IMG/VR virus record: IMGVR_UViG_3300044843_000488
Span: 1 to 64,000 of that record
DNA length: 64,000 bases
Strand: one strand, 5' to 3'
DNA from: a virus
The position numbers and the translations under genes were made by a program. The notes below the pieces were generated by a model. That model was not told the origin of the DNA. It searched no databases and saw only the letters and a list, made by a program, of their open reading frames with translations. This document shows positions 7,209 through 64,000 of this stretch, piece after piece. Positions within the stretch are counted from its first letter, which is position 1; every line of letters starts with the position of its first letter.

Positions 7209-7391
7209 ATGCAGCTAGAAGAAGCGTTTCAAATTCTCTACCGTGGCCAGAGCAACGTTGCCCATGTTGCGGCTGCTGTCGACTTGCCTCTGGGCAAAAT
7301 GAAATCCCTCTTCCGCGAATACGTCTCCCGTAATCCGCTTGATGAGCAGGCTTGGCTTAACGACATTGTTATGACGTGGCCTTATGCTTAG
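7209..7391 (+). CDS. Small putative HTH protein
   Basis: NVAHVAAAVDLPLGKMKSLF helix-turn-helix-like pattern; converges on the integrase. Confidence 0.55.
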   Translation: MQLEEAFQILYRGQSNVAHVAAAVDLPLGKMKSLFREYVSRNPLDEQAWLNDIVMTWPYA

Positions 7392-8479
7392 GTCAGCCTG
7401 TCCTGGATAGATCGTTTGAGGTCTTCTTTTTTGCACCATTTCAAATAGGTCTTTTTATGGACGTCAACGCCGTGGCCCATCAGTTGCGCGGCGTCCTCTG
7501 TTCTCACATGGCTGTATGCCTGGTGCGTGTGGAGCCTGGCGGCGTAGGCGTGGCGAAGGTCGTAGCTCGATGGGCTGCTCCATTCAGCTAGGTGCTTCCA
7601 CCGGGTGAAGAAGGTCGAGACTTTGCTGCCCAGTTCCCGGTGGGTTGATTCCGGCACGAACTCGGGTATGTCCCCGGACCGGAGGCTCCAGCGCTCGATC
7701 CACTCCGGATGGGCGGGCATCACCGGGCGGTATCCGGTCTTGGAGTTGGCGGCGATCTCGATCCAACCCTTGGCGTCGGGTCTGGATTCGAGGCGGAAGA
7801 CCTCGTGGTTACGGAGGCCGTAGGTGGCGATCAGGCCCATGGCGGTTTTCCAAGGCCCGTCATGGAGGTTGTCGACAAACCCGACAACTTGCTCGTCAGT
7901 CGGCAGATCCCTGGGATCGAGGATTTTGTCGCCGCTAAAGGTGCTCTCGGCCCTGGTGCGGTCAAGCCAGTCCCGGTCGATCCCCACACCGATCTCGAAC
8001 AGCCGCCGGGCTGTGGTGACGCGACGAAGTCGTTCGCGGCTGTCAAAGGGGGCGCGGAGCACCCACCGTTTGACCGCTTCTGCGCTGACCCCACCCCGAA
8101 ACGCCTGCAGCTCGCGGATGTGGCGCGCGTAGTCGGTGTGGATGCTGGTGCCCCGCCGGGTGAGGTGCTCCTTGAGGCGCAGGGTCAGGGCCGTCCAGCC
8201 AGTCAGCTCCTCGGCGCTCCCAATTTGGGAGGTCTTGCGCTCGATCAGGGAGGGGGTCTCCTCCAGCTCCAGGCAGAAGCGGAAGGCCCGGTTCAGGGCG
8301 TCAGACTCACGTGAATCTATACACGTGGATTTGATCTTCGTGCCATCCGGAAATGGTTGCGTAGCACGGATGTAGTAGATGGGCGATTGAGACGTCAGTC
8401 GCAGCCTAAAGCGGCAGCCCATCTCAGCGAGGACAGCGTTGCGCTCCTGCCAGGCGGCCAGGCGTTGTTGTCTACTCAT
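7388..8479 (-). CDS. int: Tyrosine recombinase / phage integrase (cyanobacterial type)
   Basis: Catalytic residues R (YGLRNHE), K (SKTG), YDLRHAYA, H (MGH) and Y (KTY). ATG at 8479; alternative TTG at 8494. Confidence 0.93.
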   Translation of the reverse strand: MSRQQRLAAWQERNAVLAEMGCRFRLRLTSQSPIYYIRATQPFPDGTKIKSTCIDSRESDALNRAFRFCLELEETPSLIERKTSQIGSAEELTGWTALTLRLKEHLTRRGTSIHTDYARHIRELQAFRGGVSAEAVKRWVLRAPFDSRERLRRVTTARRLFEIGVGIDRDWLDRTRAESTFSGDKILDPRDLPTDEQVVGFVDNLHDGPWKTAMGLIATYGLRNHEVFRLESRPDAKGWIEIAANSKTGYRPVMPAHPEWIERWSLRSGDIPEFVPESTHRELGSKVSTFFTRWKHLAEWSSPSSYDLRHAYAARLHTHQAYSHVRTEDAAQLMGHGVDVHKKTYLKWCKKEDLKRSIQDRLT

Positions 8480-8716
8480 TTCTTTACTCCGCAACGCCTG
8501 TCCAAAATAGGATGAGACTGCTCGCGGCGCAAGGGATCCCAGTCCAGGACTGCTGTCCTGTTTTGTATAGGTGTCTCAAGTCAGTGCCCAAGCGGCTTTT
8601 GCGCGGCTTAGAAGGCAGACTAAGACCCCTGTCAACGACTGGGTTTCTCAAGCCGTCTCTATTTGGGCTTTACTCAGCAACACAAAACTGGATTGGATGC
8701 TGAGGCGATGAAAAGA

Positions 8717-23988: not shown

Positions 23989-26135
23989 TAGACAACACCA
24001 TGAGTAATGTATAGATCCACAGTGGGAACCGAAAGCGGTGTAAAGGTGTTATCCGTCGTTGCGTTGACAGGATTCATCCACTGTGCATTTTCGTCCACAG
24101 ACGGTTGAGGACGCTCGGGTAATGCCATAAATGGCTTAGCCACAAACACCAATTCCGTGTTGTAGATAGGTGTAAGCTGCGTGGCTACGGCGCCCGATAG
24201 ATCGGCTTCGTAGTGAGCCACAAGCGTGTCTCCGGCAAGAATCCCTGCGGTAACAGCTGTTGTATTTACTTTAGCCGCTTTCAGAGTGAACGTCGTCGAT
24301 GAGGTGATTGCCAGAACATAGTAGTTTGTACTACCTAGCGACACCCGTTGATTGGGATATAGCCTTAGTGGAAACGCTCTTGAAACGCTGATTTCCCCGG
24401 TAACGCTGTTAAATGCACGGACTTCAATGCTGGTCGTACGGATCGGAAAGTCCGGCGGGCTATCAAACTCAGAGGTTATCGTTTCCCTCTGCCCACTAAA
24501 TATTTCTTCCAGGTTCAGCGACAGTCCTTTTGCATCAACCATGTAACTGCCGATCTTGCGGCCTCCCACCACTAAACGATGGTCATTCAGTGAAAGATCC
24601 AGGGTTACGGTACGCCCCGTGTAAGTTGTAGTGACTGCCAACGTGTTGTTGACTGGAGTCGCGTCGCTTAGTGCTATCTCAGTTCCAGCACTGTCGTACG
24701 AGGTGAGGACCTCGGGGACCATATTAAATGGAGACACGTAGTCTCCATCTCGATACGGCAGCTGCCCGTTAATGTGGCCAGTATTTTCAGGCTTGACCAT
24801 TATCGGGTCTTTCCAGATCTCCAGTTCCACTAGGGCGCTGGCTGTTGCACTCAACTTGAGTGGTTTAGTTACCAGCAAATTCTCCACCAATGCGTTGTCG
24901 TTATTGGTGAGAAAAGGTCTGGAGCGCAGTGTTAAAAGCGCTCTGCCTGCTCCGTGAGTCGTGCCTCCAATCGCGGGATCGGCAGGAATACCATTGACGG
25001 CGTCTACCGTGGCAACCTTGGCCTTGTTCTCGTCACCACCGTCGACAATGACAGATGCGCCATAGCGCTCTATAAACTCGGAACGCGCCAGGTTGCCACT
25101 GTTGGCAATCTCCACCCACACAGGCAGTCCAGGTCTGCGAAGTGAGGGCGCGTCATAGGTGCGCAATCCTCCAGCACCATCGCTTTCCTTCAAATCATTT
25201 CTCTTGGCTCTGTCTGAAAGAATCAGCTCGTGCGCCAGAATCCACCTTGCACGTGGAATCTGTGTGATTGATGTCGGGAGGTCTTTATTGTTATCAACTA
25301 GGTAGAAGTAAATTCTGACGTTGCTTGCTCCGTACCACCCCCACTCAATGAGGGTCATAAACGTCTTGGTCAGATCAAGCTTCTGCCCAGATTTTCCGCT
25401 GCCATCAACTTTGTCTCCGGTCCACTGTGACCTGGGAATCCGTGTTTCATATCTTAAGCCGCTTCCGCTGCTTGTTCGGTAAAGGATCTGCAGTCTGTCT
25501 CCTTCACCATCTCCTTTGGCCTCAACAAAGAAACCGTCGTTGGGGTCACCTACTCCCCATAGGCGCGTCACACTGATCGGCGTGTCGTCCAGCGACATCC
25601 TACAGGCCAGGCTGACACGAACAATTCTCCCCGGCTGGTAACGATATCTTTTCTTTGTGCAGACCCTGGCTCGTTGAAAACCTCCGTTTGCACTGTTGAG
25701 AATTAACTGAGCTGAGCTTGCACTAGGGTTGTATTTCACCTCCCCATACGGGGCCGGAAAGTAAATGGGCTTCGCTTTGGCTATCTGCATCCAACGAGCC
25801 GACTCAGTGCTGTCGACGTCTGGGCGCTCGTCAATTCCAGTGACGTCGTAGATCCAATCAGCCTCCGTCAGCTCATAGGCATCGTTCTGAGTAAGGAAGT
25901 TGTAAGGAGTTGTCGCTCTGGGGAAGCCCAGTAAGTCCCTGTCAACCTGTGTAGGTGCCCTGTAATTGTCAATAATCGGGAGTGTATAGCCATTCCTTGG
26001 CATAACCACTGGAAGGCTCTTTTCCTTTAGCGCTTGGCCACTAGGAAACTCCGAGGCGGCCTGTACTTCCTCCCCATTCCTGGAAATCGACTTTTGCCCG
26101 ATATCTTCCGGGAGTTGGTAGGCTTTATCCGCCAT
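23988..26135 (-). CDS. Virion structural protein (paralog of 26135-27751)
   Basis: SLPVV, DLLGFPR, YQPGRI and EWGWYG motifs shared with the neighbour. Confidence 0.7.
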   Translation of the reverse strand: MADKAYQLPEDIGQKSISRNGEEVQAASEFPSGQALKEKSLPVVMPRNGYTLPIIDNYRAPTQVDRDLLGFPRATTPYNFLTQNDAYELTEADWIYDVTGIDERPDVDSTESARWMQIAKAKPIYFPAPYGEVKYNPSASSAQLILNSANGGFQRARVCTKKRYRYQPGRIVRVSLACRMSLDDTPISVTRLWGVGDPNDGFFVEAKGDGEGDRLQILYRTSSGSGLRYETRIPRSQWTGDKVDGSGKSGQKLDLTKTFMTLIEWGWYGASNVRIYFYLVDNNKDLPTSITQIPRARWILAHELILSDRAKRNDLKESDGAGGLRTYDAPSLRRPGLPVWVEIANSGNLARSEFIERYGASVIVDGGDENKAKVATVDAVNGIPADPAIGGTTHGAGRALLTLRSRPFLTNNDNALVENLLVTKPLKLSATASALVELEIWKDPIMVKPENTGHINGQLPYRDGDYVSPFNMVPEVLTSYDSAGTEIALSDATPVNNTLAVTTTYTGRTVTLDLSLNDHRLVVGGRKIGSYMVDAKGLSLNLEEIFSGQRETITSEFDSPPDFPIRTTSIEVRAFNSVTGEISVSRAFPLRLYPNQRVSLGSTNYYVLAITSSTTFTLKAAKVNTTAVTAGILAGDTLVAHYEADLSGAVATQLTPIYNTELVFVAKPFMALPERPQPSVDENAQWMNPVNATTDNTFTPLSVPTVDLYITHGVV

Positions 26136-27751
26136 TAGCGCTGACCCCAGGTAATGCTGGCTTTACAGGAGTTAGACAGATTGTCGACGGATTTAGCAGC
26201 AATAATAAGTACATCCCCGGCTGTCCCGGATGCTGCGGTGGCTTCCCGAGTCAGATACTGACGGGCAAAGGCAAAAATTTCGGTGAGGTCGACCGTATCT
26301 GCTGACCCGTCGCCTGTAAAGAAACTAGCTAGTTGTTCGCCTCCCGTAAACGAAGTAATTGCGTTCGTAGCGCTTTCGGGGGAGTTGAACTCGATTGCTG
26401 AGAGGGTGCCAGTACTCGTAAACGCGGTTACCGGAGTCGAGGAGGCATCGCTCATCGTGGCCGGATTCTTAAACAGGGCAAACTGAGCTCTGGCTTCACT
26501 GCACATCGACAGCACCAGAGGGAACACCCTCATCAGGTTTCTTTTCGTCTGACCCTGATTATTGGTGATATTCTCTTTAATTCTCAGTGCGAGAAGTGGC
26601 TTGTACGAGGTCGTCCCGATGCTCGCCACTTTTGGACTATCCTTGCTGAAAATTGCAAGCTTGCTATAGTCGCCGCCATCAATGGAGATCTGGGCTCCGT
26701 ACTTGCGAATGTAGGAATTTGCCGACAGTGCACCAGTCTTCTCAATGCGGAACTGCATCGGAAGCGTTGGGTTCCCCAGCGACGGGTATGGGATTCTGTC
26801 TGAGCAGTTCAGATTGTGCGCAATGACCCAGCGGGAGGCTTTTACTGTTTCACCGCTAGGCAGGTTGGCATCGACAGGCACGTAAAACAACAGCCTTGAC
26901 CCGGTACCGCCATACCAGCCGTATTCAATACGGCACATCACCAGATTGGTCAGGCTGAGCTGGTGAGCCGATTTGGTATCAGCGGCACCCAGAATGGTCG
27001 TATTTGCACCGACCATCGTGTCGCCATTCCAAAAACGGCGCGGAACAATCTCTTCCATCACAGTGGGAGAGGTCGACACGAGTTGATAAACGGTGCCTCT
27101 ATCAGTACGGCTCGGTTGAGCGGTCATTACAGCCGCATCAACGGTAAAGGTGGTTGGGTCAGTACCTTGAGCCGTGTAGCCCTTCAGGTGGTCTTGTGGC
27201 CGCTCACCCGAGCTGGTCCGGCGCACGTAGTAGAGCTCGTCACCGACGATCCTCAGGAAATAGCCGTCCGTGCTGTCGAACATGCCAAACTCAATCTTGG
27301 CATTCGCGTCACGGCTCATGGCGACGCCAAAGGACGCCGAAGTAATGCGGCCGGTTTGGTACGGGAAGGCTTGCTTGGTGATCAAGCTAGCCAGCGCCCC
27401 ATTCGAAGCGGACGGGGTAACAAGCACTTCTGCTGCAGACTGCTGCAGAAGGTGATTGACCTGCGTTACCCGGCTTCCAGAGGCCGTTTGTTCATTCTTA
27501 GCCCAGATATTGGTGTCAATATCGAGCAGGTTAGTATCATCAAAAATTGCCAGGGGCGTTTGCACCCTTGGGATCCCCAGCAAGTCATCCCTGACTTGTG
27601 AAGGTGCAGACAAGTTGTCGAGGATTGGGATCGGACTCTGATCCGATGCCACCACCACAGGGAGGGAATTAGCCGAGGTCGCCTGACCAGCCGGAATAGG
27701 CGTTGTGCGACCTACTGTAATTACACTTACGCCTTCTTCAACGTCGGGCAT
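26135..27751 (-). CDS. Virion structural protein
   Basis: SLPVVVASDQ, DLLGIPR, YQTGRI and EYGWYG motifs. Confidence 0.7.
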   Translation of the reverse strand: MPDVEEGVSVITVGRTTPIPAGQATSANSLPVVVASDQSPIPILDNLSAPSQVRDDLLGIPRVQTPLAIFDDTNLLDIDTNIWAKNEQTASGSRVTQVNHLLQQSAAEVLVTPSASNGALASLITKQAFPYQTGRITSASFGVAMSRDANAKIEFGMFDSTDGYFLRIVGDELYYVRRTSSGERPQDHLKGYTAQGTDPTTFTVDAAVMTAQPSRTDRGTVYQLVSTSPTVMEEIVPRRFWNGDTMVGANTTILGAADTKSAHQLSLTNLVMCRIEYGWYGGTGSRLLFYVPVDANLPSGETVKASRWVIAHNLNCSDRIPYPSLGNPTLPMQFRIEKTGALSANSYIRKYGAQISIDGGDYSKLAIFSKDSPKVASIGTTSYKPLLALRIKENITNNQGQTKRNLMRVFPLVLSMCSEARAQFALFKNPATMSDASSTPVTAFTSTGTLSAIEFNSPESATNAITSFTGGEQLASFFTGDGSADTVDLTEIFAFARQYLTREATAASGTAGDVLIIAAKSVDNLSNSCKASITWGQR

Positions 27752-62365: not shown

Positions 62366-63112
62366 TCAGGCGCCGGCAAAATGCTTGGCGCCTGTGCCAT
62401 GGGCCTCGACAAAGATGTCAGTCTTTGCGCCGTCGCAGAGAGCACACGTGCGGCACTGCGCAGAGGAATTGTCAATGGTGGCAGGGCATTGTTTGCCGCT
62501 GAATGCCTCAGAACCTTTGGGCACAACGGCAAACGTCTTCCAACCGTGCGCAGATGCGTCGAGATAATCTGCCAAACCGTCGCAGCTTGCCTGAAACACA
62601 CCTTTGCACCATTGAGCAAATGGCTGACGCCACTGGTGCGTGTAGCCGGTGTGACCAGCAGCAAAGATGTTAATGTCGCGAACAACATGCTCATCGAGGA
62701 TGCTGGGATCGCCATATGCACCCCAGCGAATCTTGCGATTGTTGAGATACATAGAAATGTTGATGCTGGCAGCTACTGCTGCATCGGTAAGGTCAACATA
62801 CCCACCAGCTTTGTAGGTTCGCCACACTGACAGCGGGGCCTGGCCGACGTTGACATAGCAGGAGCGCTTGCCGTTGGATTGCTTGCGGTGTATGCAGTTT
62901 CCGCATATTGTGTAGTCTTCGCCGAGCATGAGAGCATCGACTGGGTTGATGTCGTCACGCAGAATCCAGACCTGGCACATGTTGCCGGTCTTACGGTTGC
63001 CTGATTCGAGCGTCATAACGGCCACAAAAGGTTTGCCGTCGATAGGGGAATTGCCACGTTGAATGACAAAACCCAGGGGCTTTTTAAAGCCACGTGCTGA
63101 CTTGTTAGTCAT
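62366..63112 (-). CDS. Cys-rich conserved phage protein (possible Fe-S / radical-SAM-like fold)
   Basis: NRKTG, ICGNC..CYV, RWGAYGDP, TGYTHQW and CPA..CRTCALC..AHG; start MTNKS at 63112. Confidence 0.7.
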   Translation of the reverse strand: MTNKSARGFKKPLGFVIQRGNSPIDGKPFVAVMTLESGNRKTGNMCQVWILRDDINPVDALMLGEDYTICGNCIHRKQSNGKRSCYVNVGQAPLSVWRTYKAGGYVDLTDAAVAASINISMYLNNRKIRWGAYGDPSILDEHVVRDINIFAAGHTGYTHQWRQPFAQWCKGVFQASCDGLADYLDASAHGWKTFAVVPKGSEAFSGKQCPATIDNSSAQCRTCALCDGAKTDIFVEAHGTGAKHFAGA

Positions 63113-63173
63113 GGTGAGAGAGTTGCTGAATGCACAGCTTGAGAGGTGAGAGAGTGCCACAAAGTGTGGCAAT

Positions 63174-63284
63174 CACACAAGGTGGGAATTGAACCCACTT
63201 ACTGTGTGCAAATACGTTGCCTGTTGATATACACCGGGTCAGTATTTGCACAGAGCGCCGTTCTAGCTGTTAACTAGCTTGTGC
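63174..63284 (-). ncRNA. tRNA-like RNA with an elongated anticodon arm
   Basis: Acceptor stem GCACAAG/CTTGTGT; T-arm GTGGG-TTCAATT-CCCAC; D-like hairpin; perfect 11-bp stem TGTGCAAATAC/GTATTTGCACA closing a 26-nt loop. Confidence 0.65.
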
Positions 63285-63769
63285 AAGATCTGAAGGGATG
63301 ATCAGTCACCCTGGCCCACATTAAATACGCTTCAGTGCTGAAGGGACACCACACCTATCGCGTAAGTTGCAGTCCTAAATGTTAAATATTCAAGGCCGGG
63401 TTGGCAGCAGTTCCTAGCAGATCCGGGATGATGAAATCAGTCACACCTATGGCGTGGCCTACGTTTGCCCCTCTAAACCTGCCAGCACTTGCTGACAAAC
63501 AAGCCAGACCGTTTGCACCTGTCGCAAGCGTCGGGGCCTGGTTCCTTTCGGTCACCCCCATCGGATCGCTGTCGCGGGTTGCGCGTGCCTTATGTCGCCG
63601 GATGCTCGGCGGCTGGTTTCGGTCGTTGCGGGCCTCTCCGCTTCGGTCCCCTCAGTCTGCATCCTCAACCGGACGGAGACGAGAGCCCGTGTGTCAGAGA
63701 TCCAATTGGCACTAGTACAGGCTAGTACAGGCGTCGCTCCCGCCACACATAAAAAGAACCGCACACGCG

Positions 63770-63797
63770 CGCTTACCATGAAAAATCTTTTTGTCAA
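63770..63797 (-). promoter_or_regulatory. Candidate sigma70-type early promoter
   Basis: TTGACA (63797-63792), 16-nt spacer ending TGG, then TAAGCG (weak -10). Confidence 0.35.
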
Positions 63798-64000
63798 GGA
63801 ATTCTTAATAATTCTTAACTACTGCGGGATCCGTTGTCTCGACATGGGTCTCGTGAGTCGATATTACTTTGCTAACTCTTGATTAATACTTTACATTTAG
63901 TTGTTTTATATCTTGTATTAAACGCTGGACTAGTGTAATTAAATATACATACATAGATGCATCAAGCTACGTTAGCGCTGGGGTTTTGGCCTGTCAACCC

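Follow-up and report, generated by a model that had tools for sequence, protein, structure and literature searches.

A conserved tRNA-shaped module with an invariant hairpin between the structured leader and the first early gene of a probable picocyanobacterial phage

Between a long structured leader and the 5' untranslated region (5' UTR) of the first early gene of a phage from lake water lies a 111-nt element on the minus strand, which joins the acceptor and T-arm half of a tRNA to a long helix standing in the place of the anticodon arm and ending in a 19-nt hairpin of nearly invariant sequence. The four-way fold, its conservation and covariation among relatives, the strand that carries it and the independent occurrence of the same hairpin in other phages are all directly observed. 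On comparative grounds, the element is a real selected structure and not a product of chance or decay. Our favoured explanation, to which we give a probability of about 0.45, is that RNase P and RNase Z would excise the element, thereby trimming the leader from the early mRNA and releasing a small RNA that displays the hairpin.

The window, by which we mean the whole stretch of 64,000 nucleotides that was analysed, comprises bases 1-64000 of a 74,307-bp IMG/VR virus record carrying a direct terminal repeat of 127 bp. The phage is a siphovirus which encodes a tape measure protein, a J-type tail fibre, a portal and a large terminase, together with ribonucleotide reductase and a family-A DNA polymerase. 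A glutamine-II riboswitch identified in the window with Rfam, a CP12 domain in the neighbouring HNH protein and the presence of relatives of the first early gene product, P0001, in Synechococcus genomes together point to picocyanobacteria as the host. The DNA runs containing the locus are all lake-water metagenomes, none of the runs listed for 62900-63800 being of RNA, and contigs from four lake DNA runs gave an identical locus sequence with no new variant. P0001 has hundreds of viral relatives, whereas the tRNA-shaped element is rare.

Some further observations concern the genomic surroundings. Upstream of the non-coding region, an HNH endonuclease gene occupies genome positions 64274-64765 on the minus strand (L001:2601-3092), and the C-terminal segment of its product is CP12-like (Pfam PF02672, 28 bits), an odd fusion for a motif of a Calvin-cycle regulator. 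The stretch between the AT-rich region and this gene (genome 64000-64273, L001:2327-2600) is GC-rich, free of open reading frames and not conserved in the related contig L002; a plus-strand terminator-like hairpin with a T run at L001:2571-2600 may mark a divergent small RNA. Elsewhere in the window, the open reading frame 7388-8494 (minus strand), which adjoins the tRNA-Arg gene, shows by eye a pattern of the R..HxxR..Y type, and searches of Pfam, PHROGs and PDB sequences gave no match to it.

The features of the locus, in the order of transcription, are the following.

63770..63797, minus strand: possible promoter, TTGACA, 16 nt, TAAGCG, preceded by TGG, read by eye
63285..63606, minus strand: conserved structured leader core of about 320 nt, with 80-93% identity against about 65% at synonymous sites
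63174..63284, minus strand: whole tRNA-shaped module, a four-way junction of 111 nt (CM R1, 124 bits; a separate domain in RNAalifold)
63278..63284, minus strand: 5' strand of the acceptor-like stem, GCACAAG, pairing with CTTGTGT
63263..63277, minus strand: 6-bp hairpin CTAGTT-AAC-AGCTAG, directly after the acceptor without an 8-9 linker
63257..63262, minus strand: junction linker with an invariant GG (63259-63258; invariant columns G26 and G27)
63240..63256, minus strand: 5' strand of the long arm (helix 3) that replaces the anticodon arm, with compensatory pairs
63220..63238, minus strand: tip, CCCGGTGTATATCAACAGG, 19 nt, essentially invariant in the homolog alignment
63201..63217, minus strand: 3' strand of the long arm, from comparative pairing
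63182..63198, minus strand: canonical T arm GTGGG-TTCAATT-CCCAC, stacked on the acceptor with a 0-nt linker
63175..63181, minus strand: 3' strand of the acceptor-like stem, CTTGTGT, completing 7 bp in which pair 1:72 is G-U
63174, minus strand: discriminator G, which is A in clade B
63156..63170, minus strand: small conserved hairpin GCCACA-CTT-TGTGGC, 3 nt after the module
63113..63173, minus strand: 5' UTR of the first early gene, 61 nt, about 96% identical between clades
62366..63112, minus strand: first downstream gene, P0001, 248 aa, phrog_2554 / DUF7227-GP88-like

A first-pass annotation of the window had described here a 7-bp acceptor stem with discriminator G, a T arm and the hairpin CTAGTT-AAC-AGCTAG, and each of these was found base for base on the minus strand. 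The minimum-energy fold of the module is a cloverleaf of -38.7 kcal/mol (z = -3.4), equalled by 1 of 200 shuffles, and a homolog from clade B, defined below, folds with z = -4.8; the linkers at the junction measure 0, about 6, 2 and 0 nt. The hairpin at 63263..63277, which takes the general form CTAG(Y)-loop-(R)CTAG with a loop of 3-4 nt, had been called D-like. It is present as described and occupies the place of the D arm, yet it is not a D arm, following the acceptor without any linker. In the junction linker behind it, the GG at 63259-63258 is a candidate partner of the T loop that would substitute for G18-G19. As to the long arm, the perfect 11-bp helix reported earlier exists (TGTGCAAATAC/GTATTTGCACA, 63252-63242 with 63215-63205) and does cap 26 nt, but the helix is longer than had been drawn: three GCU/AGU pairs are added below it by the minimum-energy fold and further pairs are contributed by clade B, which brings the arm to 15-17 bp with its extensions. 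The 26 nt, for their part, are not an open loop but themselves a small conserved hairpin, in which CC/GG, an internal loop and GU/AC close an 8-nt loop, GUAUAUCA, in every member of the family. Canonical T arms occur twice in the 74-kb genome, once in the tRNA-Arg and once in the module, against 0.34 in shuffled genomes. The module encodes no CCA at its 3' end and has U at position -1, and it has both of these in common with the phage's own tRNA-Arg. According to RNAalifold, the UU at 63286-63285 is able to pair with positions 73-74 and so to extend the acceptor-like stem by 2 bp, the pairs in the leader alignment being U-1 with R73 and U-2 with A74.

Compared with the tRNA family (RF00005), the module possesses the 7-bp acceptor stem continuous with a 5-bp T stem and the 7-nt UUCRANY loop; it possesses neither a D arm with G18-G19 after a 2-nt 8-9 linker nor a 5-bp anticodon stem with a 7-nt anticodon loop, the corresponding arm being one of 15-17 bp with a 19-nt hairpin. 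Having no 7-nt anticodon loop and no D arm, the module cannot decode, just as had been stated from the first drawing. The expectation that it would attract no normal tRNA call was likewise borne out, since ARAGORN in default and intron mode made no call at the module and Rfam 15 gave no family there, either at the gathering score or at E up to 10, RF00005 included. An ARAGORN search of the module for tmRNA found nothing, and the module also departs from tmRNA in being 111 nt only and in having A-U at pair 3:70 in clade A. Neither the GOLLD nor the ROOL model of Rfam matched in 3.1 kb around the element. What the element does have is the tRNA-like top half at a transcript boundary that characterizes mascRNA and the t-elements. 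A conserved aminoacylation identity is absent: clade A has A-U at pair 3:70, clade B has G-U there, and the base at position 73 can be G or A. The best match of model R1 was a genuine tRNA-Leu(CAA), found in 13 of 151 host-family genomes at about 26 bits, the T arm of which is identical to that of the module at 16 of 17 positions; as the Rfam tRNA model is blind to the module while R1 finds this tRNA, only the acceptor/T-arm half is common to the element and tRNA. No DNA similar to the element was found among GenBank phages, and no tRNA-like element in a cyanophage leader was found in the literature. Judged by these searches, the element is a member of a small family uncatalogued in Rfam 15. 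A separate ARAGORN call in the window, 'tRNA-Gln(TTG)' at 26988-27066 (minus strand), sits within a 538-aa virion structural open reading frame (26135-27751), has no confirmation from Rfam and is probably a false positive; the likeness of our element to it was rejected as a 10-nt chance match.

Relatives of the element were collected by DNA pattern scans of viral and metagenome contigs. The viral contigs yielded members only in L002/L100, L096 and L097, and the metagenome contigs added L122 and L179, with L121 being the L097 contig again. They fall into two clades: clade A consists of the window and L002:2825-2935, which are 5 differences apart, and clade B of L096:153-262, whose sequence is the same in L097 and L179, together with the variant L122:1450-1558. 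The other 80-odd metagenome matches and 12 viral matches to CCGGTGAATATCAACAGG were set aside as chance or as the coding region of an unrelated phage, and L102 as a chance match. L101 was left out of the family, although a 22-nt variable/T-arm stretch is common to it and R1 scores it at 20.8 bits, because its acceptor pairs poorly and the contig begins inside the element. Model R1 found nothing in 80 loci neighbouring P0001 relatives or in 17 genome loci, and nhmmer with the 1.2-kb non-coding region retrieved L002 and L064 only. In L064, whose P0001 is 88% identical, the module is absent and unrelated hairpins lie between the same flanks, so the module is dispensable.

Among the 4 distinct homologs, 92.8% of the cells pair, compared with 25-49% when the partners are slid. 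Double compensatory changes, which amount to one deep comparison and a handful of events rather than to statistics because the family is effectively two lineages, occur at five pairs: 5:106 in the acceptor (A-U in one clade, G-C in the other), 36:77, 37:76 and 39:74 in the long arm, and 89:101 in the T stem (G-C, becoming A-U in clade B). Pair 6:105 of the acceptor is broken in clade B. The hairpin at 63263..63277 keeps five pairs invariant and changes one from U-G to C-G, the T loop with its G53-C61 pair is invariant throughout the homolog alignment, and the linker GGCGCU is invariant or nearly so. L096 shows 27 differences from the window, with 20 falling in stem columns, and of the 14 pairs changed 8 stay paired, 3 gain pairing and 3 lose it. 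Each sequence contains 3 to 5 G-U pairs (pair 1:110 having been added by hand), and since these become A-C mismatches on the plus strand, the RNA is that of the minus strand. The module is 95.6% identical to that of L002 and 76% identical to clade B, while the adjacent P0001 gene reaches only about 65% identity at the third-codon positions of identical residues. The compensatory changes and a conservation well above that of synonymous sites thus argue for selection and not drift. The earlier argument from the intactness of the stems, that this is no decaying pseudo-tRNA, now has comparative backing, and the homolog search that was proposed along with it did return covariation and assigned no Rfam family.

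Within the family the tip varies at two places, with G to A in the internal loop of L002 and C to U in L122, the latter yielding a U-G pair. The same tip hairpin, CCGGUGCAUAUCAACAGG, stands free in the leaders of L024, L026, L083, L091 and L094, which belong to a more distant phage group with P0001 about 63% identical, and it has extra closing pairs there. About 60-90 nt downstream of it, the leaders of the L024/L026 type contain a three-way junction whose hairpins abut a closing stem of 7-8 bp (in L026 both without a linker) and which has no true T loop. As more distant phages have the hairpin by itself in their leaders, it seems that the tip does the work and that the tRNA-like body frames it; in sequence terms the hairpin is a deeply conserved unit that has been mounted on a tRNA-shaped frame in the lineage of the window. 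The suggestion of the first-pass annotation that the RNA might be a scaffold presenting its loop therefore gains real support from the invariant tip, the covarying stems and the free-standing hairpins of other phage leaders. The complementary targets for which it had proposed a search did not appear: the phage genome has no perfect complement of at least 10 nt to the tip and 9-mers at chance level, two Synechococcus genomes gave no target, and neither the T loop nor the tip was found to have a long-range partner within the leader. The tip could pair with itself over 10 bp, 4 of them G-U, at -11 kcal/mol; we do not propose dimerisation, because a U-to-C change in the L024-type phages would break the self-duplex, as judged by pairing it by hand.

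The module exactly fills the interval that separates the conserved leader from the conserved 5' UTR, in which CTCTCACC abuts the AUG of the first early gene. Taken by itself, the leader core has the look of a large structured phage RNA, with hairpin loops that include the GNRA-type GAAA/GCAA. When five leaders are aligned, the mean column identity is 82%, and for the whole leader including the module RNAalifold predicts 143 pairs, 15 of which still pair after two-sided changes, with the module folding independently of the rest. Rfam gives no match to the core (63285-63606), and leader and module together are a plausible new RNA family. The possible promoter lies about 650 nt upstream of the AUG, and its -35 box recurs in L002 and L064; because a strict sigma-70 scan found no promoter, we treat it as a candidate.

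Three further observations belong to this region. Just inside the leader, CTGTACTAG occurs in tandem at 63712-63730 (minus strand), and in the L024-type leader a perfect palindrome, TGTACTAGTACA, adjoins a TATATA box (L024:2055-2075); the two may represent a shared early-promoter operator. The 5' UTR block CTCAAGCTGTGCATTCAGC with CTCTCAC(C)-ATG (63113-63150, minus strand) recurs before unrelated first genes in the viral contigs L104-L107 and is perhaps a portable cassette for starting translation, with no Shine-Dalgarno sequence. Compared with L002, the stretch 62366-63606 is a mosaic, in which leader, module and 5' UTR are 93-96% identical and the P0001 gene reaches 83% identity in its DNA as a whole but about 66% at synonymous sites, a pattern that suggests either strong constraint or a recent exchange of the non-coding block.

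In the excision reading, we infer that the candidate promoter is used and that the module would be transcribed from the minus strand as the last domain of the long structured leader of the early operon. The acceptor-like stem stacked on the T arm would then offer a 12-bp top half to RNase P, RNase Z and the CCA enzyme. RNase P would cut at 63285/63284 and RNase Z after 63174, whereupon the mRNA would start 61 nt before the AUG, separated from the structured leader, and a tRNA-like RNA of about 111 nt, predicted to be stable, would be released. Its long arm would display the invariant hairpin with the loop as a binding site for a putative protein or RNA partner. We favour excision because RNase P, RNase Z and the CCA enzyme all recognise the top half of a tRNA, and because U at -1 and the lack of an encoded CCA fit the enzymology of cyanobacterial tRNA genes. 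The first-pass annotation had suggested a processing signal for the early transcript, a role to which the anatomy and the position of the module are suited. Excision also has precedents, as tRNA-like modules in long transcripts and phage leaders are known to be cut out by RNase P and RNase Z, and the C4 and M3 RNAs of phages are RNase P substrates (PMC4919922, PMC11143913). Against excision count the 2-bp extension of the closing stem, which is unusual in a pre-tRNA and fits an uncut structural domain, the silence of RF00005 at E = 10, the absence of the module in L064 and the failure to find a tip partner; without a D arm, moreover, the module may not form an L-shaped elbow. In a bolder and rather unlikely version, the module would be a natural 'tRNA scaffold', by which a temperate cyanophage excises, with the tRNA-processing enzymes of its host, a stable RNA whose invariant hairpin, its sole functional end, captures a host or phage factor early in infection; the relatives would employ the hairpin free of its scaffold, and the leader core and the module together would represent a new GOLLD/ROOL-like class of large structured phage RNA, one with a tRNA-type domain built in.

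Possible, though on balance doubtful, is the explanation that the module is never cut and is one domain of a single large leader RNA that acts on the early operon in cis. In that case the T loop and the four-way junction would be modules for tertiary contacts or protein docking, T loops being known as contact modules in RNase P RNA, T-box leaders and rRNA, and the leader might control, for example, antitermination, stability or translation, the hairpin serving as a factor site of the nut or boxB kind. Several of the above results fit such a domain well: it is embedded in the conserved leader core of about 320 nt, with GNRA-type loops and 15 two-sided pair changes across the alignment; its closing stem can be extended past position 73; and the tip in leaders of the L024 and L026 types is an ordinary leader hairpin, followed by a three-way junction without a true T loop. 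The leader also precedes the first early gene, which is where lambdoid nut sites stand. However, the canonical T arm, the invariant 7-nt loop and the zero linker are more tRNA-like than a generic junction needs, the module folds apart from the rest of the leader in RNAalifold, and the leader holds no long-range partner for T loop or tip.

A decoy for tRNA-targeting defences had also been put forward. In a wider form, the module would be a decoy or sponge for host factors directed at tRNA through the acceptor/T-arm elbow, among them defence nucleases, toxins and modification enzymes. The conserved tRNA top half would suit this role, as would a place in the early transcript, when counter-defence is needed, but the idea fared poorly and we consider it quite unlikely. 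There is no anticodon loop to attract anticodon nucleases, no encoded CCA and no D arm; the identity elements are not conserved but vary at pair 3:70 and position 73; the most conserved part is the tip, which is not tRNA-like, rather than the part that is; and L064, a close relative, manages without the module.

More improbable still is that a tRNA gene, perhaps for tRNA-Leu, survives here as a functionless, drifting relic or rearranged copy, or that an intron splits a genuine tRNA. This reading could appeal to the T arm that is 16/17 identical to host-family tRNA-Leu(CAA) and to ARAGORN, which draws a 'tRNA-Leu(GAG) with a 28-nt intron' once its threshold is lowered to 80% and introns are permitted; such forced drawings at lowered thresholds are mutually inconsistent and were disregarded, and at the default threshold there is no call with introns (-i) or without. 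Bacterial tRNA introns, moreover, are group I introns of more than 200 nt, and Rfam finds no group I intron here. The inserted part is the most conserved part of the element, and the compensatory changes and a conservation well above synonymous sites speak against drift. Finally, a site acting at the DNA level is hardly credible, whether a cruciform, an operator, an origin or an attP core that copies a host tRNA 3' end (the attP sites of phages are often such copies of tRNA 3' halves, and P0001 relatives do sit in Synechococcus genomes). Both stem halves are conserved and covary, a property for which an attP core has no need; the G-U pairs speak for a single RNA strand; the phage has the motif only once; and the T arm plus 3' acceptor (24 nt, at most 3 mismatches) matched 0 of 301 host-family genomes in the sample searched.

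Modules of tRNA shape that direct RNase P and RNase Z occur in eukaryotic long non-coding RNAs, in plant mitochondria and in a few coliphage RNAs; to our knowledge none has been described from the early leader of a cyanophage. If the module is processed, the phage would set the 5' end of its early mRNA and make a stable small RNA by means of host tRNA enzymes. If it is not, the module would offer a clear T-loop four-way junction as a building block in a large phage RNA. The hairpin is portable and compact, and its partner could reveal an early step of host take-over in freshwater picocyanobacteria.

Among known systems, a canonical tRNA (RF00005) resembles the module in the 7-bp acceptor-type stem on a 5-bp T stem, the UUCAAUU loop, the discriminator and the four-way junction, and differs from it in having a D arm, a 7-nt anticodon loop and a variable region. 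In MALAT1/mascRNA, menRNA and the t-elements of plant mitochondria, tRNA-like modules are cut by RNase P and RNase Z (PMC4919922). The module is like them in lying at the edge of a long structured transcript and in the proposed logic, by which cleavage would set the ends of the flanking RNA and free a small tRNA-like RNA. Those systems, however, are eukaryotic or organellar, whereas ours belongs to a cyanobacterial DNA phage, has a long arm with a conserved hairpin and is processed by prediction only.

The C4 RNA matures out of the leader belonging to the very operon that it targets, and its loops pair with downstream sites in the same mRNA. In phages P1 and P7, this antisense RNA is an RNase P substrate (PMC11143913, PMC4919922). 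The module shares with it the character of a small structured RNA in the leader of a phage operon and maturation by tRNA enzymes, a feature of C4 that is predicted for the module; unlike C4, it has no complementary site beyond chance in the phage genome, no sequence similarity and no Rfam match. The tRNA-like domain of tmRNA likewise combines an acceptor and T arm with a long helix for the anticodon arm and a reduced D region, but the module, at 111 nt, has no tag reading frame and no pseudoknots, and G3-U70 is not conserved in it. In YrlA the free ends lie at the Ro-binding stem and the acceptor is closed, whereas the module ends at the acceptor and has no Rfam match. The likeness here is the mimicry of the tRNA elbow by a non-coding RNA, phages included, for which the Y RNA-like YrlA of bacteria and phages is the example (PMC4201824).

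On L078:5936-6035 (plus strand), within the 71.8-kb contig of a distant relative, there is an intergenic 100-nt element with a 7-bp closing stem and four hairpins, two of which are canonical T arms (GACGG-TTCGATT-CCGTC and GAGGG-TTCGAAT-CCCTC); ARAGORN makes no tRNA call at it. The large phage RNAs GOLLD and ROOL often stand beside tRNAs or contain them, and the present locus likewise joins a large, ornate and conserved phage non-coding RNA to a tRNA-type element, although its leader is smaller, lies directly before an open reading frame and matches no model. The last comparison is with the engineered 'tRNA scaffold' of the laboratory. The module differs from it in being natural and in having no D arm, and its stability and processing are predictions; it is like it in the design itself, in which the anticodon arm is swapped for a helix that displays a functional hairpin.
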